Below, piece after piece: positions 21,572-49,078 of a stretch of DNA of 51,031 nt. Within the stretch, counting starts at the first letter, position 1. The number at the start of each line of letters is the position of its first letter. The DNA lies in sequence record MN158209.1; one strand, written 5' to 3'. The DNA comes from Escherichia phage BEK7. The notes beneath the pieces are model-generated. The model searched no databases and was not told where the DNA came from. It saw nothing but the letters and a program-made list of their open reading frames with translations. The position numbers and the translations under genes are program-made.

Positions 21572-21591
21572 GTTTAGCAAAAAGTGCTATT
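21572..21591 (-). promoter_or_regulatory. conserved element upstream of Cor-like lipoprotein gene
   Basis: Minus-strand ATAGCACTTTTTGCTAAAC; TATAGT 21 nt downstream; about 60 nt before ATG at 21516. Confidence 0.45.
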
Positions 21592-21660
21592 TGTTATTTT
21601 TTGTTTTCCGGTGTTATCGGATTTAAGGCGGCGTAAATTTAGCGCAAATCTTAGCCAACA

Positions 21661-24182: not shown

Positions 24183-24635
24183 ATGCATATTATTACTGGT
24201 GAGATCCGAAAAGAGCCGCGAGTAAAGCAAATGCCTAACGGCAGCACACTTTATGTGGTTGAACTTTCAGAGCGATACAAAGATAAAGATGGAAACTGGC
24301 AATATACAAACTACAGTTTCTTTTTTAATGCTAAAACAGAAGGTCTTAAGGGTTGGTATGATGAGGCATTCCAGGTTGGCAAGGTTATTTCTGTATCTTG
24401 CGACACGCTGCGCATTGAAACGCGTGAATATAACGGAAATCTGTATTCAAGTTTAATGCCAGGAGGATTTGCAAATCTTATCTTCAGTCAGCGCGGGGAA
24501 AGCCAGCAACAATATCAGCAGCGAACTCAAGGAGGATGGGGGCAGCAACAACAACAGAATCAACAGCAACAACCGCAACAGCCAAGACAAAGCAATCAGC
24601 CTCCTATGGACTTTGATTCTGACATCCCATTTTAA
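24183..24635 (+). CDS. ssb: single-stranded DNA-binding protein
   Basis: OB-fold-sized N-terminus, Gly/Gln-rich linker, C-terminal acidic tail ending DFDSDIPF. Confidence 0.85.
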   Translation: MHIITGEIRKEPRVKQMPNGSTLYVVELSERYKDKDGNWQYTNYSFFFNAKTEGLKGWYDEAFQVGKVISVSCDTLRIETREYNGNLYSSLMPGGFANLIFSQRGESQQQYQQRTQGGWGQQQQQNQQQQPQQPRQSNQPPMDFDSDIPF

Positions 24636-27337: not shown

Positions 27338-28270
27338 TTAGAGAAGAAATTCAGGTTTATAAACCTTCCTCTCTATCCCTTGCCTGTAATTATCATTAAT
27401 CGGCATCATAATTTCAAGTCCTCTTTCCTCTGCAGCAATGATCGCGTCACGATCTGTGCTCTTGCAGACAACTCGCATTCTTCTGTTGCCTTTATACCTG
27501 TAAGCTACAATCTCAATGTTAGTTGCATCAAAGCAGGCCCAAACCTCCTGACCAGTTGCAAGGTGAATATGTTGCGCATCAATCCAGTCAACGCAAAGAT
27601 AGATAGTCTTATCTGTACTTCCGGTTCTAACAATCGACCCTCTCGTGTAGTCCTTTGCTAGAAAAGACTGATTACCTTCTTCATCAATGAAAAGCACATT
27701 GCACATTTCATCATCAATTTCATCTGAATGTACCAGGTAACATGGTAACGCGTGAATGTATCGACCATCTTTAACGCCGCATTCATAATAACCATCTTCA
27801 GAAGGATATATCCCTTCATAGGTGCTTAACGGCGTGCGATCAAGTTTTAGTGTTTTTGACATAACGCGCTCGCAGCATTCATGGCTTGCCTGTTTCCCAA
27901 ACGAATAACCAGAATCACGAGATACTCGCTTATTTGCCTTGATTCTATAGTCCTGCGGAACTTTTCCAAGAAAGCGACCCAAAATATTGATCACTTCGCT
28001 GTAAGGTTCTCCGGTTAGCTTCATGATCCAACCAATTCCAGTATCGTTCCCGCACACGTTGCAGATAGCGCCTCCGTCGCCTTTTTTATCTCCAAGTTTA
28101 TCAGTCCATCTAAAGCGATCCTTTCCGCCGCAGTGGGGGCAAGATTGATGCTTGCCGTTAAAAACTTCATTTGGAAGACCGCAAATACTTTGTAGCGCCT
28201 CACGCCATAATCCCTGCATATATGGGAGAATATCTTCCTTTTGATAAACCATAAAGTTTTCGTTGTTCAT
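27338..28270 (-). CDS. DNA primase (zinc-ribbon type)
   Basis: ATG after GAGGTG; zinc-binding CPHCGGKDRFRW...CNVCG motif typical of primase zinc ribbons. Confidence 0.65.
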   Translation of the reverse strand: MNNENFMVYQKEDILPYMQGLWREALQSICGLPNEVFNGKHQSCPHCGGKDRFRWTDKLGDKKGDGGAICNVCGNDTGIGWIMKLTGEPYSEVINILGRFLGKVPQDYRIKANKRVSRDSGYSFGKQASHECCERVMSKTLKLDRTPLSTYEGIYPSEDGYYECGVKDGRYIHALPCYLVHSDEIDDEMCNVLFIDEEGNQSFLAKDYTRGSIVRTGSTDKTIYLCVDWIDAQHIHLATGQEVWACFDATNIEIVAYRYKGNRRMRVVCKSTDRDAIIAAEERGLEIMMPINDNYRQGIERKVYKPEFLL

Positions 28271-28325
28271 ATGCACCTCAAACAAAAAAGCCTGACAGAT
28301 GATAACATCATGCCAGGCATTGTTT

Positions 28326-28799
28326 TTAGCAATTAGTGCTTTCAGGTTTATACAGGAATCCGCCAGGCTCATAATCTGACATTCTTACCACTCGCAACAT
28401 TTCACGCTTATCACATCTCTTTGTGAGCGGTTTGCCATTGGAATCAAATCGCAGGTCTGGACGACAGAATGATGCGCGATAGCCTTGACATCCATATTTT
28501 TTGTAATCGTTATGCACCTTTTGAGCGCCAGCAGCTGAAATCATACCGCGAACACGCCACTGATTTACAGTTTGCTGGCTAACGTTAAGACGTTTTGCCA
28601 TTGCTGATACACTTCCGTAATACTCAATAAGGATGTCAAGTCGCGCTTTTAGTCCGGCGCGCACTTCATCTTTTAAAACATAGTATCCTGTAGGGCGCTT
28701 GCGTTTCTTCTTATCCTTGCCTCGTCTGGTTCCGTTATTGCCATTAATTGTGCGCTTGTCAATCTTGCCAGTTGATACCGCGATTCGCTGTTCTTTCAT
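28326..28799 (-). CDS. HTH DNA-binding protein (putative transcriptional regulator)
   Basis: Lys/Arg-rich N-terminus and helix-turn-helix-like SVSAMAKRLNVSQQTVNQWRVRG; divergent from helicase gene. Confidence 0.5.
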   Translation of the reverse strand: MKEQRIAVSTGKIDKRTINGNNGTRRGKDKKKRKRPTGYYVLKDEVRAGLKARLDILIEYYGSVSAMAKRLNVSQQTVNQWRVRGMISAAGAQKVHNDYKKYGCQGYRASFCRPDLRFDSNGKPLTKRCDKREMLRVVRMSDYEPGGFLYKPESTNC

Positions 28800-28811
28800 T
28801 ATTCATTCTCC

Positions 28812-28831
28812 AATAGCATTTTTTGTTAAAC
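28812..28831 (+). promoter_or_regulatory. conserved 21-nt promoter-like element (copy)
   Basis: AATAGCATTTTTTGTTAAAC; TATTAT 21 nt downstream; about 55-75 nt before helicase start. Confidence 0.5.
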
Positions 28832-28888: not shown

Positions 28889-30916
28889 ATGATTCCAAAC
28901 ATTGAAAAGCAAATATCAGCACTTGGTGAAGCGGTAATTAAATCCATTCAGGAGCGATTCACTGTTGGCGATATTGTGCCTTACCCTTACCAGTGCGTTG
29001 CATACGCTGAGATCGCAAAGCGTATGAAAAATTATGAGCATCCATTCTTTGTTAAAGCGTCGGTATCGTCTGGCAAAACATTGATGTTTGCAATGGTTGC
29101 TCACCAGTGCCGGAAAATGTGCTTAAAAATGATGGTTCTTGCTCGCCAGGCTGAGATTGTGGATCAAGATTCTGAAGAGATAACAAATCTTGGCGTGCCG
29201 AACTCCATCTATTGTGCAGGACTGAAGACAAAAAGCGCATACTTTCCGATCGTTGTTGGTTCTGAGGGAACTGTAGTTAATGGACTGTTTAAAGCGCTTG
29301 GCGACTATGTTCCGCACGTTATCGGGATTGACGAGTGTCACCAGGTGGATTGGGAAGACCTTGCCGACGCCATAGAGAAAGACGAGTCATTTTTACAAAT
29401 GACGACAAAGAAAGGCGAAAAAGTACAAAATCCAGATTATGACGTAGCGAGCGATAACGAATGCGAAGAATTCCTGATTGGTGAGGATGGCTTGCCAATG
29501 GAGGGAACAGGCCGCACACAATACACTGTCATTATCATGGAAATGATGCGACGTTGCAGGAAAGCATATGGTCATGAACTGCGCATCTTTGGTATGACTG
29601 GATCGGAGTTTCGCGGCGTAGTTCCAATACTGGTAGAAGATAAAAAACAAAAAGGATTCTGGCGCGAACAGGTTACTAATATTGATACCAACTACCTTAT
29701 CAAGTTTGGCTCGGTTGTGCCTACCAATTTTGGCGACGTTGGCGATCTAGGTTATGACCTTTCAGAGTTTGAGGCATCCAGTGAGGACGGCGTTGAAGAC
29801 TTTGACCAGAAAACTCTGCGCAAGATGGAGGAGAAGATCCATAATGATGCAACCATGACGCAAAAAATCATGTCACGCGTGCATGAGATCTGCAAAGACC
29901 GCAACGGCGTGCTGGTAACTTGCGCAGGTGAGCGTCACTGTAAAGAGGCCGCTGCCGCACTTCCGACAGGCACGACATACAGAATCATCACTGGCAAGAC
30001 GGGAGAGAAACAGCGTAAGGAGTGGTTAAGGGAAGCATTCGAGGGAAAGGTAAAATACATTTTCCAGGTTCAGGCGCTAACAACTGGCGTTAACCAGCCG
30101 TTATGGGATACTTCCGTCATTCTGCGTAAAATCAGATCACTAACGTTGCTGATTCAGCTTTTAGGGCGCGGTATGCGACTGCTTAAGAAATGGCATATTG
30201 AGCAAGGATTCACGAAAAACGATCACCTTGTTCTTGATTTCGCCGGAACGATGGACGAGCTAGGGGATTTATATTTCGATCCTATACTTGAGCAAGCGCA
30301 ATTCCAGAAGCGATTCACCAACGGGAAAGATCCGAAAACTTGCCCGATATGCAAGACGCTGAATAGCTACTACGCGCGCCGTTGTATGCACGTAGACGAA
30401 AGCGGAAAACGGTGTGAGCACTTCTGGACGTATCGCGAATGCACAGACCAGGTAGATCCGAGAACGAAAAAGATTATTCATCGCGGTTGCGGAACAAAAA
30501 ACGACGTAGTGGCGAGAGTATGCCGTTGTTGCGATATTTCTCTTGTCGATCCTAACGAGAAGTTAAGCGGCAAGCACTACACGAAAAACGATTACATGAG
30601 TGTTAAATCGTTCCGTGTTGACATGACAAAAAACCAGAAAGGTATCGTTTTTTGCTATGAGCTTGATTATCATGGGGAAACATTCAAGGCATACGAAAGA
30701 TTTTTCCCTGAGTCAGAAAGCAACATTTGCCGGACGATATGGAGAAAAATAGCATTGCAGCACATACCGGATCGCAAGATTGCTGGTATGGTGGCGAGCT
30801 ATAGAAATGCGCGTAAAATTATGGCATACGCCCATCACATCATGCCGCCAGTACGCGTGACGCATCGCAAGACGGCGAAAGGAGAGGACAACATTGCTAA
30901 ACGGGAGTTTGCTTAA
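28889..30916 (+). CDS. SF2 DNA helicase (DExH box)
   Basis: Walker A VSSGKT, DECH box (IGIDECHQV), C-terminal Cys-rich zinc-finger-like region; start could also be 28868. Confidence 0.75.
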   Translation: MIPNIEKQISALGEAVIKSIQERFTVGDIVPYPYQCVAYAEIAKRMKNYEHPFFVKASVSSGKTLMFAMVAHQCRKMCLKMMVLARQAEIVDQDSEEITNLGVPNSIYCAGLKTKSAYFPIVVGSEGTVVNGLFKALGDYVPHVIGIDECHQVDWEDLADAIEKDESFLQMTTKKGEKVQNPDYDVASDNECEEFLIGEDGLPMEGTGRTQYTVIIMEMMRRCRKAYGHELRIFGMTGSEFRGVVPILVEDKKQKGFWREQVTNIDTNYLIKFGSVVPTNFGDVGDLGYDLSEFEASSEDGVEDFDQKTLRKMEEKIHNDATMTQKIMSRVHEICKDRNGVLVTCAGERHCKEAAAALPTGTTYRIITGKTGEKQRKEWLREAFEGKVKYIFQVQALTTGVNQPLWDTSVILRKIRSLTLLIQLLGRGMRLLKKWHIEQGFTKNDHLVLDFAGTMDELGDLYFDPILEQAQFQKRFTNGKDPKTCPICKTLNSYYARRCMHVDESGKRCEHFWTYRECTDQVDPRTKKIIHRGCGTKNDVVARVCRCCDISLVDPNEKLSGKHYTKNDYMSVKSFRVDMTKNQKGIVFCYELDYHGETFKAYERFFPESESNICRTIWRKIALQHIPDRKIAGMVASYRNARKIMAYAHHIMPPVRVTHRKTAKGEDNIAKREFA

Positions 30917-31386
30917 TGAATTGGCATGATATTTTTTCATATGATAATGGTCGCCTTTTTTGGGCGACCAAAAGAGCAAACTGCATAAAAGTAGGTGACG
31001 AGGCAGGATTTTTACATCACCAAGGATACAGATTTGTTTGCATAAACGGGAAACAATTTGCAATCCATAGAATAGTATGGGAGATGCACTACGGAAAAAT
31101 ACCATATGGATATGAAATAGATCATATTAACGGCATAAGAGATGATAACCGCATAGAAAACTTGCGTCTGGTTATGAGAATCGACAACATGAAAAACAAA
31201 GCTACGTATAGGAATAACAAAAGCGGATTTGCTGGTGTTTCATGGGATAAAAGTAAGTCTAGATGGGTGGCAAAAATTGCAAACAAAAAACTAGGTGACT
31301 TCAAAAGCATAATTGATGCCGTGAATGCAAGAATAGTTGCAGAAGTTAGCTCAGGATTTCACAAAAATCACGGGAGGAAGCAGTGA
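30916..31386 (+). CDS. HNH homing endonuclease
   Basis: HRIVWEMHYGKIPYGYEIDHINGIRDDNRIENLRLV plus AP2-like C-terminus. Confidence 0.85.
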   Translation: MNWHDIFSYDNGRLFWATKRANCIKVGDEAGFLHHQGYRFVCINGKQFAIHRIVWEMHYGKIPYGYEIDHINGIRDDNRIENLRLVMRIDNMKNKATYRNNKSGFAGVSWDKSKSRWVAKIANKKLGDFKSIIDAVNARIVAEVSSGFHKNHGRKQ

Positions 31387-31799
31387 TAACTGATAAAGGC
31401 GATTATCTTGAGTTTTACGAAAGGGATCCAACCGACACGAGAAGGGAAGTTAATCACCAGATAGATAGTTTTCAGTGGTTGACTTATGCTCATCCTTATT
31501 TGCTGGCGTGGCATACGGTAAACGAGAATGAGAAGTCTAAAGCAACGGCGATGATTGATCAGCAGTCCGGTTTGGTTAAGGGAGTAAGCGATTTTATCAT
31601 CCTGATTGGTACAAAAGGCCGCTACCCGTTTGCGGCTATTGAGATGAAGCGCGTCAATAAGTCCGGAAAGGGAAAGGCTTCACCAGTCAGCAATGAGCAA
31701 AAAGCCTTCTTGCGACGTGTGCGTGAGATTGGCGGATTCGCCGCTGTAACATACGGATATAAGCAATTCATGATCGCTGTAGAATACATGATGAAATAG
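31383..31799 (+). CDS. VRR-NUC domain nuclease
   Basis: GVSDFIILIGTKGRYPFAAIEMKRVN...EQKAFL pattern (D...E.K) characteristic of VRR-NUC. Confidence 0.7.
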   Translation: MITDKGDYLEFYERDPTDTRREVNHQIDSFQWLTYAHPYLLAWHTVNENEKSKATAMIDQQSGLVKGVSDFIILIGTKGRYPFAAIEMKRVNKSGKGKASPVSNEQKAFLRRVREIGGFAAVTYGYKQFMIAVEYMMK

Positions 31800-31815
31800 C
31801 ACTTTTTGTTAAAAC
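31795..31815 (+). promoter_or_regulatory. conserved 21-nt promoter-like element (copy)
   Basis: AATAGCACTTTTTGTTAAAAC; TAG at 31797-31799 is the stop of the VRR-NUC ORF; CATAAT 22 nt downstream. Confidence 0.5.
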
Positions 31816-32579: not shown

Positions 32580-32837
32580 ATGCAGAAAGAAAGAAGAGTT
32601 TTACTTAATGAAGATGGCGAATTTCTTTTGTATCGCGCTATGGTATGCGATGCACTTGATAAAAACCCTAACGTGAAAAAGATGATTGATTGCGATCCGT
32701 GGGAATTTTCAAGCGCATTAGATATGAGCTTTGAGGAGACAAAAAAACTCCCACTTGAAAAATGGCACGAACAAATCAGAAATGACATGCAAGAATTTGT
32801 CGATTCGTGGAATTTTCAGAACGGAATGATCCACTAA
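32580..32837 (+). CDS. hypothetical protein
   Basis: 85-aa ORF; stop TAA immediately followed by the element's TAG. Confidence 0.4.
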   Translation: MQKERRVLLNEDGEFLLYRAMVCDALDKNPNVKKMIDCDPWEFSSALDMSFEETKKLPLEKWHEQIRNDMQEFVDSWNFQNGMIH

Positions 32838-32856
32838 TAGCACTTTTTGTTAAAAC
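32836..32856 (+). promoter_or_regulatory. conserved 21-nt promoter-like element (copy)
   Basis: AATAGCACTTTTTGTTAAAAC followed by hairpin GCCCGGC...CGGGC and ATAATT. Confidence 0.5.
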
Positions 32857-33426: not shown

Positions 33427-34545
33427 ATGAGTCAAAGCAAGATAACCGACGAGCAATTCACGCATGAGCGATTAAAGGGTAAGAGCTATCGACAGATTGC
33501 TGAGGAATACGGCCTGAATGTTCGCAGCGTCGAGCGCCGAGCGGCACGACTGGCAAAGCAGGGAAAAATAACCACTGTAGGAACGCCTGGTTTTGGTGTT
33601 CACGGCGAATCGGTCATGACCGACAAAGAAGGTAACGTGATCCTCAAATGGACAAAGACCAGTAAGGACAAAGAGCAACTGGAAGCGTTGATGCGCGCAG
33701 CTATGGACGCTTTTACCGAAGAATTACCTCGTGTAGATCCGACACCAGAAGAAACAATAAAATACAGAGAAAGCCTTGCCCTTTACCCCGTTTTTGATAT
33801 GCACCTGGGAGCTATGGCGCACAAGCACGAATGCGGCGAGAATTGGGATACATCAACGGCAGAGAAGGTAATGAATGACTTTTTCGATTATGCTGTGGCC
33901 TGCGCCCCGTTCAGCGAGAAAGCAGTGCTGCTGATTGGCGGCGACATGCTTCACAGTGACGGCCTGGAAGCGGTAACTCCTGCAAGCGGTCACGTATTGG
34001 ATCAAGATAGCCGATACGCAAAATTAGTTTACGTTGCAATTCGTGCCGTCCGTCGAGCCATTGAGTTGATGCTCAAAAAACACAAAGAAGTCGAGATCCA
34101 GATAATTGAGGGCAACCATGACCAAAGCGGCATGATCTGGTTACGTGCAGCTATGGCGGCGGCATATGAAAAAGAGCCTCGCGTTTACGTTGATGTATCG
34201 CCGCGAGTGGTTCACCATACGCAGTACGGAAAAACATTCCTTGCATATCATCACGGTCACACCGTCCGAAAGCCGGAAACATTGCTAATGATGTGCGCAG
34301 CAGACTGGCGGGAGGACTTTGGAAACTCAAAAACTATGTATGCGCACGTAGGGCATTTTCATCATCAGACTGTAACAGAAACATCGCTAGGCATTGTTGA
34401 AGTACATAGCACGATGGCAGCTAAAGACGCATACGCCGCGCGAGGCGGTTGGCGTTCCCGTCGCCGTGCTGCGGTTATCATTTACGACAAAGAACACGGC
34501 GAAATCGGACGCTTTATGTTTTATCCTGAAATGGCAGATAAATAA
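33427..34545 (+). CDS. calcineurin-like metallophosphoesterase with N-terminal HTH domain
   Basis: Phosphoesterase motifs DMH, GGDMLHSDG, EGNHD and His-rich HVGHFHH; N-terminal HTH-like YRQIAEEYGLNVRSVERR. Confidence 0.6.
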   Translation: MSQSKITDEQFTHERLKGKSYRQIAEEYGLNVRSVERRAARLAKQGKITTVGTPGFGVHGESVMTDKEGNVILKWTKTSKDKEQLEALMRAAMDAFTEELPRVDPTPEETIKYRESLALYPVFDMHLGAMAHKHECGENWDTSTAEKVMNDFFDYAVACAPFSEKAVLLIGGDMLHSDGLEAVTPASGHVLDQDSRYAKLVYVAIRAVRRAIELMLKKHKEVEIQIIEGNHDQSGMIWLRAAMAAAYEKEPRVYVDVSPRVVHHTQYGKTFLAYHHGHTVRKPETLLMMCAADWREDFGNSKTMYAHVGHFHHQTVTETSLGIVEVHSTMAAKDAYAARGGWRSRRRAAVIIYDKEHGEIGRFMFYPEMADK

Positions 34546-36214: not shown

Positions 36215-36601
36215 CTAAATGAATACTCTTACCTTTATCATATATGGTTGCATGCCATTTCTTTCTTTCTTCCTCCAGCACACTCCAACCCTACCAGATT
36301 TATTTCTTTTTAGTAGAGATACGTTTTTGCTGTTCTCTAATCTTGATGCAAGCCTTAAATTTTCAATCCTGTTATCCAACCTATTGTGCCATATATGATC
36401 TATCTCCATTCCTTCTGGTATTTTTCCATTGTGCATTTCCCATATTATTCTATGAGCCAAAAGCAATACACCATTATACCTTATTCTTACATAGCCATTT
36501 TTATCTACACATCCAGCAACGATTCCTGGCTTTGCTTTTCCCCTTCTGTTTCTCCATCTCAATATTCCATTGTCATATATAAATATTTTATTCCAATCCA
36601 T
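36215..36601 (-). CDS. HNH homing endonuclease
   Basis: HRIIWEMHNGKIPEGMEIDHIWHNRLDNRIENLRLA. Confidence 0.85.
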   Translation of the reverse strand: MDWNKIFIYDNGILRWRNRRGKAKPGIVAGCVDKNGYVRIRYNGVLLLAHRIIWEMHNGKIPEGMEIDHIWHNRLDNRIENLRLASRLENSKNVSLLKRNKSGRVGVCWRKKERNGMQPYMIKVRVFI

Positions 36602-36986
36602 ATCTTTTCCTTAGAGCTTCTATTTGTTGTCTATTAGCATTTGGCGTAAACAATTCTTCATCACTCATTTCTCCGATCCGTAAAACATCTCTTACCCATT
36701 CGTTTTGCATACCTTCCAGGCTGTAAAGTTCAAACGAGAAAGGGCGATTTGCTGATCCTTTCTTACACCAGAACTTTCCACAAACTCCATCAAGATAACC
36801 AGCAGTCATCATTCTTGCGCAAAACTCTTTTGAAACGGCAGTCGCAAACATTCTCGGCGTAAATCCTGCGGCCCTTGCGAGCCGCTCACATTCTCTGTGC
36901 TGAAAGATAAATTTTGCTATATGTTGACGCGTAAACCATTCGAATGACTCACACCAGCGATAAATATCAAGTAGAAACACGATCAC
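36588..36986 (-). CDS. hypothetical protein
   Basis: 132-aa ORF (true start probably internal ATG). Confidence 0.35.
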   Translation of the reverse strand: MIVFLLDIYRWCESFEWFTRQHIAKFIFQHRECERLARAAGFTPRMFATAVSKEFCARMMTAGYLDGVCGKFWCKKGSANRPFSFELYSLEGMQNEWVRDVLRIGEMSDEELFTPNANRQQIEALRKRYGLE

Positions 36987-38566
36987 CCCAGCAATGTTGG
37001 ATTTACGAAAACAACGCCATTAATCACACAAATATAATTTCTTTCCTCAAGCATCGGAAGCAGTTGCGTTTCCATGCGCTTCATTACGCCAGCCTGACCA
37101 ACAAAAGGCTTAACTTTTCGTGCTGCCTCATATATGGCGCGCACATTCAAGATTCCCTTATTAGCCTTGCCGTGTCGAGTGATGATCTCGATTAGTTTAC
37201 CCATTTCAGCATCATCACCAGCATAGCCAGAAGCGTTTGCGGCGCTAATGTATGTTTTGCTCAACTCGCTAAACATCAGCAATGCTTCCTGAACGGTTTC
37301 AACCTCAATCTCTTTAGACTTCTGAGGGTATCCACCAGGATTAAACCAATTGCGGATAGTGTGCAAAACCGAAGCAATCCTGATCACCTGCTTATCCATT
37401 TTGCCAAGCGCACCTCGCAGCATTGTATGCGAATACTTTCCGCCATCAGCAAGATGCGGTTCCATCTCCTGACGAGCCATGTTAAGCACTCGCATTGCTG
37501 ATTTGCTGATCTTAAGCTGGATGTTTGATTCGCTCATTATGTTATGGATCAGCTTGAAATATTGGCTTTTCAGTTCCCCATCAACAGGTTCATAAGTAGA
37601 GTCACCGTTATCATCAACAAACTTTCTACGGCCTAAAAATGATTCCTCACGCACAAGCAAATAACGCTCACTTACACCGATACCTCGCGATCCTGCATCC
37701 ATGATGGCATTGATTGTTTCATCCTGGGCAATTACCGCCATACATCCAAGAGCTTTAAAACTCATATTGTTGTCAGCGTTTGCGCGAGCTATAGAAACAT
37801 GACCGTGATCCCATGCTTTCAGCACAAGTTCGCTGTTTGTTTTGCGTTCGCTATTGGCATATGTCAGACCTAAAAGGCTGTTAATACTCGTTGCCTCGTC
37901 TGAAATTACAGCAAAGTTACCCTGGCGATTGTTGATTCTTGCAAGTCCTTCCGGCGTGGTATCGGACACAGGGAAAACAATGTCACACATCTTTTCAAGT
38001 TTTTCTTCAAGATCTTCTTTCTCCTGGTATAGCGATTCCATGTCAGCGCCAGATCGCTCGCTTTTCATCTCTTTTGCAAGACCTGCCAACTTTGCCTGAA
38101 TCTTTTTTCGTTCCTTCTTTCGCTGATCATTAATTCTTTCTACTTCAGCAACCATAGGAGCAAGCGCCAGGCTGTTAACGGCAGATTTACCAGTTGAAGG
38201 AGGCTGGCTTGTGACAACATAAAGAGCGGTCGGCTGATCCGTTCCGTGATACTCAACAGTGAAGCGTCCAAGCATTGCAGCAGACACACATCCGATAAAA
38301 TGCATATATGCCGATGATTCAGGGAACTGAACTGATCGAGCAATGTTGCGCGCCAACTTACCAACAACATCAACATCATTGCCAAGAGAAATTATAGGGT
38401 AGCGATCGTTTCCGTTATTAACATCATTAACCCCACCCCAAAAGCTGGACGATTGACGGTATCCGTTAGCCTGAATGGACACGCGCACCGGAGACAATCC
38501 TTGCGCATCAGCTAATTCTATAATTTGTTTTGGTGTTAGTTTATTGGTTTCAAACGAAAAATTCAT
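36983..38566 (-). CDS. P-loop NTPase protein (possible replication protein)
   Basis: ATG after GGAG; Walker A-like SQPPSTGKS; about 527 aa; no other motif recognised. Confidence 0.45.
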   Translation of the reverse strand: MNFSFETNKLTPKQIIELADAQGLSPVRVSIQANGYRQSSSFWGGVNDVNNGNDRYPIISLGNDVDVVGKLARNIARSVQFPESSAYMHFIGCVSAAMLGRFTVEYHGTDQPTALYVVTSQPPSTGKSAVNSLALAPMVAEVERINDQRKKERKKIQAKLAGLAKEMKSERSGADMESLYQEKEDLEEKLEKMCDIVFPVSDTTPEGLARINNRQGNFAVISDEATSINSLLGLTYANSERKTNSELVLKAWDHGHVSIARANADNNMSFKALGCMAVIAQDETINAIMDAGSRGIGVSERYLLVREESFLGRRKFVDDNGDSTYEPVDGELKSQYFKLIHNIMSESNIQLKISKSAMRVLNMARQEMEPHLADGGKYSHTMLRGALGKMDKQVIRIASVLHTIRNWFNPGGYPQKSKEIEVETVQEALLMFSELSKTYISAANASGYAGDDAEMGKLIEIITRHGKANKGILNVRAIYEAARKVKPFVGQAGVMKRMETQLLPMLEERNYICVINGVVFVNPTLLG

Positions 38567-38619
38567 TGGTGATAACTCCTTTTTGATGCGGCAATAATAC
38601 CGCACCAATGCTACCCGCA

Positions 38620-38638
38620 TTTAACAAAAAATGCTATT
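38620..38638 (-). promoter_or_regulatory. conserved 21-nt promoter-like element (copy)
   Basis: Minus-strand AATAGCATTTTTTGTTAAA; its TAG is the stop of ORF 38634-38897; TATTAT 22 nt downstream. Confidence 0.5.
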
Positions 38639-38897
38639 TGATCCGCTCTATGCTAACTAAGATTTTTTCTGGTTCCTTTGCACTATGGAAATGCGCGGTT
38701 ACAGAATCAACAAAATCAAAGTAAAGTGATTTGTGATATGAGAATCCAATCAGCCAACCTACCGCCGTTTTTTTGATGGGCCTGACTATATCGCCAGGCT
38801 TGAAGGTTTTTGTTGCTGAATAAGTCACCTTATAGCGATATTCAGTCTTGATCATGAGACTTCTCTTTTCCGTGGTTTTCGTGGAAACCATGCTCAA
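38634..38897 (-). CDS. hypothetical protein
   Basis: 87-aa ORF. Confidence 0.35.
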   Translation of the reverse strand: MSMVSTKTTEKRSLMIKTEYRYKVTYSATKTFKPGDIVRPIKKTAVGWLIGFSYHKSLYFDFVDSVTAHFHSAKEPEKILVSIERIK

Positions 38898-39360
38898 TCA
38901 ACAACCTATCTATTGCTGATATAGCCGACTCAATACATGTGTGCCATCCACCATAAATCAATCTACCATCAACCTTTACATTAACCTTGTACTTCCCCCT
39001 ATTTTCGTACCAGATAATTCCTATATGACCGATTGTATTGTTAGATCGCATGGATAAATTTCGTCCGTTTATCGACCTTGTAACCAATCTCAAGTTTTCT
39101 ATCCTGTTATCAGTTCTGTCATGGTTTATGTGATCAATTTCCATTCCTTGAGGAATATCTCCGTTGTGCATAATCCAAACAACCCTGTGAGCATAAATTT
39201 GTACACCTTCTACAGTTAGCTTTACATACCCTTTGCTGTTTACGGTTCCAGCCTCAAGACTGCGTTTTCTACCCTTTCTCCACTCCTTCCAGTAAAGAAT
39301 ACCGTCGTCGTATCTTAGTTGGCTTAGAAGTATTTCGCTTGAAATTTTGCAGTTGCACAT
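38842..39360 (-). CDS. HNH homing endonuclease
   Basis: HRVVWIMHNGDIPQGMEIDHINHDRTDNRIENLRLV. Confidence 0.85.
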   Translation of the reverse strand: MCNCKISSEILLSQLRYDDGILYWKEWRKGRKRSLEAGTVNSKGYVKLTVEGVQIYAHRVVWIMHNGDIPQGMEIDHINHDRTDNRIENLRLVTRSINGRNLSMRSNNTIGHIGIIWYENRGKYKVNVKVDGRLIYGGWHTCIESAISAIDRLLIEHGFHENHGKEKSHDQD

Positions 39361-39707
39361 TCAAAACCATCCTCGCAGCGATATAGAGTAAAGCGATCAC
39401 CTTGTTCATCGTAAACATACCCAGCAACAGCGCCAAGCACTCTACCACTTTCCACTTGATACCTCTTTCCTTGCTTGAAAGTTTTCTTAACGCTAAGAGA
39501 ATGGTCAACGAAAGTGCAAAGTATTGTTTTTGTCTTGATATGACGATAGTCAGACTCAACAGCGTTTTGCCACTTGCTACCCTTTGTAATGCTCTTTACC
39601 TGGAATTGTTCCAACTCGATCACATCATCGCTACCAGCAATTTTTTCGTATACAGCTTTATAACGACCGTTCATCAAAACGTTGGTTTTATTGCAGATAA
39701 CTTTCAT
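39324..39707 (-). CDS. hypothetical protein
   Basis: 127-aa ORF about 70 nt downstream of an element copy. Confidence 0.4.
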   Translation of the reverse strand: MKVICNKTNVLMNGRYKAVYEKIAGSDDVIELEQFQVKSITKGSKWQNAVESDYRHIKTKTILCTFVDHSLSVKKTFKQGKRYQVESGRVLGAVAGYVYDEQGDRFTLYRCEDGFECATAKFQAKYF

Positions 39708-39762: not shown

Positions 39763-39783
39763 CTTTTAACAAAAAGTGCTATT
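39763..39783 (-). promoter_or_regulatory. conserved 21-nt promoter-like element (copy)
   Basis: Minus-strand AATAGCACTTTTTGTTAAAAG; TAG is the stop of ORF 39779-40465; hairpin CCAGGT...ACCTGG then CATAAT. Confidence 0.5.
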
Positions 39784-40465
39784 TTGAGTTTGCCTCAAAT
39801 ACGGCGCGAGCAAATCCTCGCGGAGTGAGTGAGCGTAGTTGCTTTGTTCTGGCAGACTTACCGCCTAAAAACTTCCAACCCCAAAAGAACATTACGCCCT
39901 CATCATTGCATAACGGCTTGCGTTCGGGTTCTGTAAATCCGTTGCCGCACCAGATAGCAGTCCTTTTTGTGTATCCATCCTTTAGCGGCATCTTGGGGTG
40001 AAAAGATCCATCGGATTCGTCCAGGTAGTTACCAAAATCGCGCGGATTGAAATAAAAATCAGGCTTGCGCCATAGCGTTGATAGTCGGCCTACAGGATTC
40101 TCAGCCATCCAGGGAACACCGAAATGATTCCCGACAGTTTCAACCATGATTGCATTTTTGAGCGCGACCTGAATATCATCATCGCTTCGCAAGTGCTTAC
40201 TTCCTGATTGGGCAAACATGGTGCAGTCTGGAAATCCAAATACAATATCTGGTTTTGGAATATCCATCTTACTGATTCTTTCAATGAAATTTTCATCAAT
40301 CCACATATTCACATAATGAAGATTTTCATGCTTCATCTTGATGAAATATTCTCCGTGGTTGCCTTCGTCAGCGTTGAAGCAATAGCATTGATAGCCAGCC
40401 TTCGCATATTCCAGCAACATAATTCCAGATCCATCAAACATTGAGTAAGCGATTTTTTGTTTCAT
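39779..40465 (-). CDS. C5-cytosine methyltransferase-like protein (compact, no obvious target-recognition domain)
   Basis: AdoMet motif I-like YSMFDGSG, PC-like FGFPDCTMFAQSG, ENV-like AENPVG; only 228 aa. Confidence 0.45.
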   Translation of the reverse strand: MKQKIAYSMFDGSGIMLLEYAKAGYQCYCFNADEGNHGEYFIKMKHENLHYVNMWIDENFIERISKMDIPKPDIVFGFPDCTMFAQSGSKHLRSDDDIQVALKNAIMVETVGNHFGVPWMAENPVGRLSTLWRKPDFYFNPRDFGNYLDESDGSFHPKMPLKDGYTKRTAIWCGNGFTEPERKPLCNDEGVMFFWGWKFLGGKSARTKQLRSLTPRGFARAVFEANSK

Positions 40466-41791: not shown

Positions 41792-41812
41792 GTTTTAACA
41801 AAAAGTGCTATT
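41792..41812 (-). promoter_or_regulatory. conserved 21-nt promoter-like element (copy)
   Basis: Minus-strand AATAGCACTTTTTGTTAAAAC; TATATT lies in the loop of hairpin GATGCGC...GCGCATC. Confidence 0.5.
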
Positions 41813-42171
41813 TAGTCCAGGAATTCGATTTCACGTTCTCCAGTTAGCGGATCTACAAGCCAGAATCCGAGCGGCTCGCCGTAAACACCGCCATAGAATC
41901 CAAGCGCCGACAGATCTTCACCTTTAACGAATGCCAGGTTTCCGCAACGACTTACGTGAGACACGTTAACGATAACCGGAAAGGTGCGATCCTTAAACGC
42001 AGGCCGCAGGGCGTAACACCCGTTATTGAGCAAACGTGCTTTGCGCTTAACTGGAATAGGTGCATTGATTCGCGCCATCTCTATTTCTCCATTGTTGTTA
42101 ACCATGTTTAACGGCATCCAGAACATCACAGGATTCGTTAATAAATTTTGCCATGCGCTTATCATCACCAA
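41812..42171 (-). CDS. hypothetical protein
   Basis: ORF in track. Confidence 0.35.
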   Translation of the reverse strand: MVMISAWQNLLTNPVMFWMPLNMVNNNGEIEMARINAPIPVKRKARLLNNGCYALRPAFKDRTFPVIVNVSHVSRCGNLAFVKGEDLSALGFYGGVYGEPLGFWLVDPLTGEREIEFLD

Positions 42172-42664: not shown

Positions 42665-42685
42665 GTTTTAACAAAAAGTGCTATT
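42665..42685 (-). promoter_or_regulatory. conserved 21-nt promoter-like element (copy)
   Basis: Minus-strand AATAGCACTTTTTGTTAAAAC; TACATT 22 nt downstream. Confidence 0.5.
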
Positions 42686-42949
42686 TGCCGACTGGTTATT
42701 ATTCCATCTATTCCATTAATCAGGAATAACAGGAATAACTCATTCGCGATCACCTGGATTGTGAGACTTTGAGTTTGATCAATTTTAATCAGTTGATTAA
42801 CTTTTTGTGCGGAGGGGATAGAGAAACACGGTCCTCTCGCATCCTTTCCGGCAATCCTGGCGAGCAATTCTGTTTCTTTCGTTCCCGTTGTTATGCCAAA
42901 TAGCCCTCCGCAACTGGCGATAACAGAAATCGCGTTGACATAACAAAAA

Positions 42950-43863: not shown

Positions 43864-44104
43864 GATTGATATTGATAAAGCCGCAAAACAAGTTGTTAGT
43901 GCGCTTGGTGGCAAGAAGTACACGAAAGAGGATGTGGAAAAAATACTGGACACGGCTAGGGACTTGATGATTCACGATGCCGTGCTTTCTTCTGGAGAGT
44001 GGCAAAAAACGTATCCGGCATCTTCCGAGGATATGATGAAAGCTATCAGAATCCTAGTAAATCACAGGGATAGCTTTAGCGTTACTTTCACTGACCGGAA
44101 ATAG
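43847..44104 (+). CDS. hypothetical protein
   Basis: 85-aa ORF; stop TAG is inside the next element copy. Confidence 0.4.
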   Translation: MATMNKIDIDKAAKQVVSALGGKKYTKEDVEKILDTARDLMIHDAVLSSGEWQKTYPASSEDMMKAIRILVNHRDSFSVTFTDRK

Positions 44105-44120
44105 CACTTTTTGTTAAAAC
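44100..44120 (+). promoter_or_regulatory. conserved 21-nt promoter-like element (copy)
   Basis: AATAGCACTTTTTGTTAAAAC; CATAAT 22 nt downstream. Confidence 0.5.
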
Positions 44121-48771: not shown

Positions 48772-49059
48772 ATGGCTAAAAGCAATCGTAAGATGTTGAT
48801 TAACGCATTCGAAAAGGCAGCGCTTGAGCGTGGTTGGAATGACTCATTTCACACAGCAAACTGTATCCGACGTTACGGATTCAAGAATTGCCGCTCATGG
48901 GCGCGTCAAATGGCTTCATGGTATGATCTTGATGCGCATTACCTTGATATGGATTGCGCCCTTGTTGAAATGATTGAGCAGGCCGCACTAGAGGATCGAC
49001 CATTAACGCAATCTGATTTTGACGATTTTGTGCGCGATGAAATCTATTACATGAGCTAA
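48772..49059 (+). CDS. hypothetical protein
   Basis: 95-aa ORF with RBS AAGGAGG; TAA stop followed in frame by the element's TAG. Confidence 0.4.
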   Translation: MAKSNRKMLINAFEKAALERGWNDSFHTANCIRRYGFKNCRSWARQMASWYDLDAHYLDMDCALVEMIEQAALEDRPLTQSDFDDFVRDEIYYMS

Positions 49060-49078
49060 TAGCACTTTTTGTTAAAAC
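49058..49078 (+). promoter_or_regulatory. conserved 21-nt promoter-like element (copy)
   Basis: AATAGCACTTTTTGTTAAAAC; imperfect hairpin then TAAAGT; about 75 nt before GTG start 49135. Confidence 0.45.

Follow-up and report, generated by a model that had tools for sequence, protein, structure and literature searches.

A large P-loop gene of Escherichia phage BEK7 encodes a DUF3987-family (MCM-like) DNA helicase

Phage proteins of the DUF3987 family have been assigned to helicase superfamily 6 (SF6) and were proposed to be replicative helicases, in a study that connected one of them with MCM (HHsearch probability, 98%) and noted a winged helix-turn-helix at the C-terminus as well as an association with archaeo-eukaryotic primases (AEP) or DnaG primases (Kazlauskas et al., 2016, PMC4889955). 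Among them is 'dns' of phage N4, a DUF3987-AEP fusion reported to be essential for replication (PMC4889955). A list of helicase modules found in fusions with AEP primases also includes DUF3987 (Kazlauskas et al., 2018). The PriCT-DUF3987 protein AgaPH was purified in a 2025 study. It is oligomeric, binds its PrimPol and unwinds 5'-tailed and forked DNA in the 5'-to-3' direction with ATP or dATP, and this activity is lost on mutation of Walker A or Walker B (PMC11724360). Here, we analysed the gene at positions 36983-38566 (minus strand) of a 51,031-nucleotide stretch of Escherichia phage BEK7 (MN158209.1), called the window hereafter. The gene encodes a DUF3987-family (MCM-like) DNA helicase that is known and widely conserved and merely lacks an annotation in the GenBank record. 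Very likely, the protein is the phage's own replicative DNA helicase and belongs to the DUF3987 branch of the MCM-like (SF6) AAA+ ATPases. With the family predicted to be a replicative helicase in 2016 and helicase activity shown for one member in 2025, this finding is already known.

The 527-residue product matches the Pfam family DUF3987 (PF13148) with 149.6 bits against a gathering cutoff of 27 (E 1.8e-43), over residues 82-431 and profile positions 3-350 of 364. The same profile is matched by all 33 aligned homologues. Over its full length the protein matches PHROG 2373, 'DNA helicase' (E 2.6e-244). Phage herni has a 99% identical protein that, like many others, is already named DNA helicase, and the phage T1 orthologue is the 'DNA helicase' ST9 (58% identity). 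The T1 gene occupies the same genomic position, after the lysis genes and on the other strand; an ST10-like ORF (open reading frame) comes next, and an HNH gene lies beside it. A sequence-only reading of the window had described a protein of roughly 527 residues with a Walker A-like SQPPSTGKS motif, located among small genes between HNH endonucleases and of unknown role. We could confirm the ORF, the motif (translated from 38183-38209) and the placement, with HNH genes at 36215-36601 and 38842-39360 and small leftward neighbours. The role is indeed unknown as far as the GenBank record of phage BEC3 is concerned ('hypothetical protein'), but not in sister phages, where near-identical genes are named DNA helicase.

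Using tblastn, the gene was recovered in 920 phage records, 899 of them with full length, essentially all from T1-like phages of Escherichia, Klebsiella, Salmonella, Shigella and Citrobacter. The DUF3987 family as a whole is large, since among 1.84 billion representative proteins a profile search matched 5717 clusters at E<=1e-3 and 370 clusters at E<=1e-30. An NCBIfam search with the protein returned nothing meaningful, and neither the protein by itself nor the 33-sequence profile retrieved more than chance matches when PDB sequences were searched. In some relatives, such as Salmonella phage 36 and Shigella phage 2019SD1, the 'helicase' gene is split. The pieces in phage 36 together cover the normal gene length and the 2019SD1 record is flagged as an unverified assembly, and therefore sequencing or assembly errors are a simpler explanation than insertion of a homing endonuclease.

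To describe the domain anatomy, we took the secondary structure from the DSSP string of the predicted monomer structure, and conservation from 133 representatives (23-37% identity) aligned to the family profile; all parts are encoded on the minus strand. The predicted fold is an AAA+ alpha/beta core with a helical lid, with a pre-sensor-1 hairpin and a C-terminal winged helix, and the nearest solved fold is that of MCM. Overall, the interpretation given by the sequence-only reading is supported in part. A core strand (residues 116-120) leads directly into the Walker A motif or P-loop SQPPSTGKS (residues 120-128; 38183-38209). Q121, P122, G126, K127 and S128 of this motif are invariant among the aligned homologues, and K127 is present in 121 of the 121 distant relatives aligned at that position. 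The Walker B strand VISDE (residues 220-224; 37895-37909; DSSP strand 218-222) carries the catalytic E224, which is found in 133/133 relatives, and S222 is conserved in 93%. The Walker B aspartate site itself (residue 223; 37898-37900) departs from the classic hhhhDE pattern, being D in 51, A in 47 and S in 28 of the 133 sequences.

A pre-sensor-1 beta-hairpin (residues 256-271; 37754-37801; strands 256-259 and 268-271) is predicted immediately ahead of core strand 274-280. Located in the loop that joins the two hairpin strands, R261 is kept in 132 of the 133 relatives, and the hairpin with this arginine probably lines the DNA channel. The DNA-contacting basic residue of MCM proteins lies near the corresponding place; this comparison draws on what is generally known about MCM and not on a superposition of residues. 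Directly after core strand 4 (274-280) lies Q281 (37724-37726), a glutamine in 132/133 distant relatives and a candidate for the sensor-1 position. The GVSERY motif (residues 297-302; 37661-37678), followed by a strand at 302-306, contains the putative arginine finger R301. G297 and R301 are found in all 133 relatives and E300 in 92%, while residue 302 is Y or F. This GVSER[FY] pattern resembles the 'SRF' arginine-finger motif of MCM, and R301 may act in trans. T204, E206 and E307 are conserved in 98-99% of the relatives. In the helical lid (residues ~330-406; 37349-37579; helices 330-344, 355-372, 381-388 and 390-406), K389 is present in 133/133 sequences and is a candidate for sensor 2, and H402 is conserved in 92%.

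The Walker A helix is prolonged by an antiparallel helical hairpin of ~65 residues (residues ~129-192; 37991-38182; helices 127-169 and 173-192). This region is occupied in 85-92% of the distant relatives, and its sole Pfam match is weak and of coiled-coil type. According to the predicted structure, the hairpin is a family-specific insert that is not seen in MCM (archaeal MCM, MCM2-7, MCM8/9). Behind the lid, another helical hairpin (residues 422-468) precedes the C-terminal winged-helix domain (residues ~472-527; 36986-37153; DSSP winged helix 472-521). The N-terminal domain is helical (residues 1-100; 38267-38566; helices 12-22, 26-34, 37-42, 67-78 and 83-98), and neither an OB (oligonucleotide/oligosaccharide-binding) fold nor a zinc finger is evident in these ~100 residues of the predicted structure. 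It varies among distant relatives, with an occupancy of just 0.1-0.7 over residues 1-50.

Among relatives of the protein, a link to primases is evident from both gene fusions and gene neighbourhoods; such an association is typical of DUF3987 proteins but does not strictly define them. In longer relatives, the modules found ahead of DUF3987 are a DnaG CHC2 zinc ribbon (P0151), a BT4734-like AEP primase (P0235) or a DnaB N-terminal domain (P0183). Two distant phage-like contigs, L004 and L005, encode DUF3987 proteins that are 35-38% identical to our query. [quoted passage not shown] In L004 (7001-9319) the order is DUF3987, DnaG-type primase, SF2 helicase and exonuclease. For both the primase and the SF2 helicase of L005, the window encodes an orthologue (29% identity, E 1e-38, and 40% identity, E 7e-156, respectively). 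The window therefore holds the same replication gene set, but its helicase gene has been separated from the primase gene, as in T1.

The probable partner in the window is the phage DnaG-type (zinc-ribbon) primase (27338-28372, minus strand; Pfam Zn_Ribbon_Prim, PHROG 510), which is found together with a regulator (28326-28799) and is followed by a tail-fibre gene. Of a primase profile with 667 positions, this primase matches the first half only, and the T1 record likens its primase to the P4/phiR73 alpha primase, which suggests that the window primase is of the primase-helicase type but lacks a helicase half of its own. The SF2 helicase gene (28889-30916) is followed by an HNH gene and a VRR-NUC gene, and SF2 helicase and VRR-NUC look like a branch-processing pair. 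The window also encodes a RecE-like exonuclease, Erf, SSB (24183-24635), two methylases, polynucleotide kinase and dNMP (deoxynucleoside monophosphate) kinase. Neither a DNA polymerase nor a DnaB-type helicase nor a helicase loader was detected among the window genes. Since the primase seems to have no helicase half, the SF2 helicase would serve branch processing and no DnaB-type helicase was found, the DUF3987 protein is the only candidate ring helicase of the window.

With AgaPH, the protein shares the Pfam family, the Walker A, Walker B and arginine motifs, the core with a small C-terminal winged helix and, probably, a functional tie to a primase. AgaPH differs by its N-terminal PriCT domain and by its AEP PrimPol on an integrated element, whereas the window protein has a short helical N-terminus and a presumed DnaG-type primase partner encoded 8.6 kb away. 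The 'dns' protein of N4 is likewise a DUF3987 helicase of a virulent coliphage; there, helicase and primase are fused, while they are encoded by separate, non-adjacent genes in the window.

For the protein described here we infer assembly into a ring or hexamer and DNA unwinding, as well as its polarity, its partners and its essentiality. In such a model, subunits would assemble into a ring with ATP bound at the subunit interfaces, where K127 and D223/E224 of one subunit would meet the arginine finger R301 of the next. Hydrolysis would shift the pre-sensor-1 hairpin, with R261 in its loop, along the single-stranded DNA in the channel, and the duplex ahead would be unwound. Its partners would be the phage DnaG-type primase, the SSB of the phage and DNA polymerase III of the host; use of the host polymerase is assumed because the phage encodes none. 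Contacts to DNA or to partners would probably be the task of the winged helix at the C-terminus and of the short N-terminal domain. MCM, Cch and Cch2 run 3'-to-5' (PMC7581432) and the characterised DUF3987 enzyme runs 5'-to-3', and hence polarity cannot be deduced from the fold; that of the window protein may be opposite to that of MCM. Literature searches on defence-escape mutations in Drexlerviridae helicases and on old data about the host dna genes required by T1 returned nothing relevant.

Several observations weigh against the assignment as an MCM-like replicative helicase. Identity to MCM proteins is just 11-18%, and a relaxed Pfam scan with the 33 homologues (E up to 10) found no match to MCM, Mg-chelatase or any other AAA family. 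The helix-2 insert of MCM is not evident from the secondary structure, as the helix between strands 2 and 3 (residues 205-215) is short and uninterrupted, and the N-terminal OB/zinc tier of MCM is absent in the predicted structure. The label 'MCM-like' thus refers to structure prediction and to the published profile-profile comparison. Because no MCM hidden Markov model (HMM) matches and the OB/zinc N-terminus is missing, we regard the protein as a relative of MCM and not as a member of the MCM family. Furthermore, the primase gene lies 8.6 kb from the DUF3987 gene, which sits in the leftward small-gene block, and it is the SF2 helicase, a second helicase, that is encoded beside the primase. 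A paper on phage TLS treats the SF2 helicase and the primase as the replication pair, and no other helicase is named where it deals with these two proteins. In the literature, we found no T1-like DUF3987 helicase that has been characterised biochemically, structurally or by other experiments.

An extension of the replicative helicase assignment is a self-loading initiator-helicase that recognises the origin through its C-terminal winged helix, perhaps together with the product of the downstream ORF (36588-36986), and then unwinds it, similar to SaPI Rep or Cch2. The sequence-only reading had also suggested a replication initiator, and the winged helix and the absence of a detectable loader gene in the window are in line with it. 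A winged-helix ORF is translationally coupled downstream, and the mobile-element helicases Cch2 and SaPI Rep have iterons close to their own genes as binding sites (PMC7581432). However, our search of the gene and its surroundings revealed neither iteron arrays nor tandem repeats, and the sole nearby repeat is a genome-wide 21-nt element oriented with transcription. Neither L004 nor L005 has the coupled winged-helix ORF next to its DUF3987 gene, and MCM proteins bear a C-terminal winged helix, yet are not initiators. The self-loading helicases Cch (DUF927, SCCmec) and SaPI Rep belong to other Pfam families, are structurally farther from the protein than MCM and run 3'-to-5'. We therefore consider an initiator role possible but rather doubtful.

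A motor for recombination or branch migration, comparable to ComM, MCM8/9 or RuvB, which would serve recombination-dependent replication and concatemer formation, is unlikely. Replicative MCM2-7 and archaeal MCM score higher in the structural comparison, the fusion partners are primases and the N-terminal domain of DnaB, with no recombination protein among them, and the conserved neighbour is a primase. Moreover, branch processing already seems to be covered in the phage by the SF2 helicase together with VRR-NUC. The position of a P-loop protein among small early-type genes had led the sequence-only reading to propose a helicase loader, a primase-associated C-terminal domain protein or an ATPase for host takeover. 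These roles are very improbable: no loader family (DnaC/IstB-like or lambda P) was the best match by HMM or fold, neither a D5_N nor a Primase_Cterm match nor the fold of superfamily 3 (SF3; D5/P4-alpha class) was found, and nothing supported host takeover. Least probable of all is an AAA+ protein that is no helicase and acts on proteins, as the MoxR/RavA or Mg-chelatase types do, given that MCM proteins score clearly higher, that the hairpin arginine, the C-terminal winged helix and the fusions to primase and DnaB-N domains speak for DNA, and that helicase activity was demonstrated for a DUF3987 member (PMC11724360).

The start of the helicase gene was assigned to the ATG at 38566, which is preceded by AAAGGAG at 9-nt spacing and corresponds to the N-terminus in 32/32 aligned homologues. 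The first ATG of the same frame (38620 to 36983, minus strand; 545 residues) was rejected because of the position of the ribosome-binding site (RBS) and of the N-termini of the homologues. The gene, a minus-strand ORF of 527 codons plus stop and the large P-loop gene of the window, is real, since homologues in 920 phage records and 5717 representative clusters go far beyond chance. Its product corresponds to the GenBank CDS QGH77590.1, a 'hypothetical protein' in the record of Escherichia phage BEC3 (MN158217.1; Drexlerviridae, Tempevirinae, Hanrivervirus), with which a 3-kb stretch around the gene is 100% identical.

Downstream, the GTG start of an ORF of ~130 codons (36588-36986, minus strand) overlaps the TGA of the helicase gene. 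This ORF belongs to the T1 ST10 / PHROG 2794 family, which is confined to T1-like phages. In the BEC3 GenBank record it is annotated too short (87 residues), and it is called 'YdbL' in some records. Its product is predicted to form a winged helix, with generic winged-helix fold matches only, and contains an invariant acidic SD[DE]ELF motif (SDEELF here) that is reminiscent of SSB-type C-terminal tails. The tie between this ORF and the helicase is positional only.

The upstream control region of the helicase gene (38570-38639, minus strand) comprises a 21-nt repeat, a -10-like hexamer, a hairpin and an AGGAG RBS. The gene's own copy of the repeat, AAATAGCAyTTTTTGTTAAAw, is located at 38619-38639, and the -10-like TATTAT follows 22 nt after TTGTTA. 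In the direction of transcription the element reads AAATAGCACTTTTTGTTAAAA, and ten copies are present in the window against 0 expected by chance (21572-21592, 28811-28831, 31794-31814, 32835-32855, 38619-38639, 39764-39784, 41793-41813, 42666-42686, 44099-44119 and 49057-49077). Every copy is intergenic and oriented with the next gene, and the copies lie in the early and replication regions. A -10-like hexamer (CATAAT, TATTAT, TATATT or similar) is found 21-22 nt past TTGTTA in every case, and a hairpin follows about half of the copies. This repeat was also reported for phage TLS, where its consensus is aaATAGCACnnnTTGnTAAAA, it precedes start codons by ~76 nt and no function is known for it (PMC11447400). 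In the window, the location of the element at roughly -54 to -34 from the putative start would fit an activator site or an UP-like element. A search near the gene for iterons or tandem repeats that might mark an origin was negative. Scans for sigma-70 promoters and for terminators gave counts below and at random expectation, respectively, and were uninformative.

The DUF3987 gene is surrounded by small, leftward genes, and one small ORF separates it from each of the two flanking HNH endonuclease genes (both minus strand). In the closest Hanrivervirus relatives, aaroes, haarsle and damhaus, the alignment is confined to window positions 36613-38854 and ends before both HNH genes, and in Fulano1 HNH genes are found at other positions. 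Judged from these comparisons, the HNH genes at 36215-36601 and 38842-39360 are recent mobile insertions. A third HNH homing-endonuclease gene (30916-31386, plus strand) is located between the SF2 helicase and VRR-NUC genes, and all three adjoin replication genes. Around 20 unannotated 'Campylobacter phage' GenBank records (MG0656xx; A16a, A15a, A118 and others) are 92-95% identical to the window over 36500-39500; their stated host, C. jejuni, looks doubtful. Elsewhere in the window, a 372-residue 'DNA repair exonuclease' (33427-34545, plus strand; PHROG 704 / T1 ST16 family) combines an N-terminal helix-turn-helix similar to sigma-70 region 4 (Pfam E 6.5e-5) with a phosphoesterase part, which is an unusual combination.

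For the annotation, these results mean that QGH77590.1 should be changed from 'hypothetical protein' to DUF3987-family (MCM-like) DNA helicase. T1-like phages commonly serve in therapy and as models, and little work has been done on their replication; the locus indicates that a DnaG-type primase and the polymerase of the host are combined in them with a motor of MCM-like type. The protein would do the same job at the fork, alongside a DnaG-type primase, that is carried out by DnaB or T7 gp4 of superfamily 4 (SF4). These enzymes have a RecA-type fold, whereas an AAA+ fold is predicted here; no DnaB_C match was found, and the motor domains share neither sequence nor structural similarity. By analogy with the characterised enzyme, we tentatively suggest that a 5'-to-3' MCM-fold ring replaces DnaB on the lagging strand of T1-like phages, in a replisome that is bacterial in its other parts (the phage DnaG-type primase and host DNA polymerase III), and perhaps loads itself without DnaC. 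Such loading might rely on the winged helix, on the family-specific helical hairpin or on the product of the coupled ORF. Both polarity and loading have already been raised as questions in the literature, and the locus adds no new kind of system. If DnaB is indeed replaced in this way, T1-like phages would use a motor of archaeal/eukaryotic type with bacterial polarity and bacterial partners.

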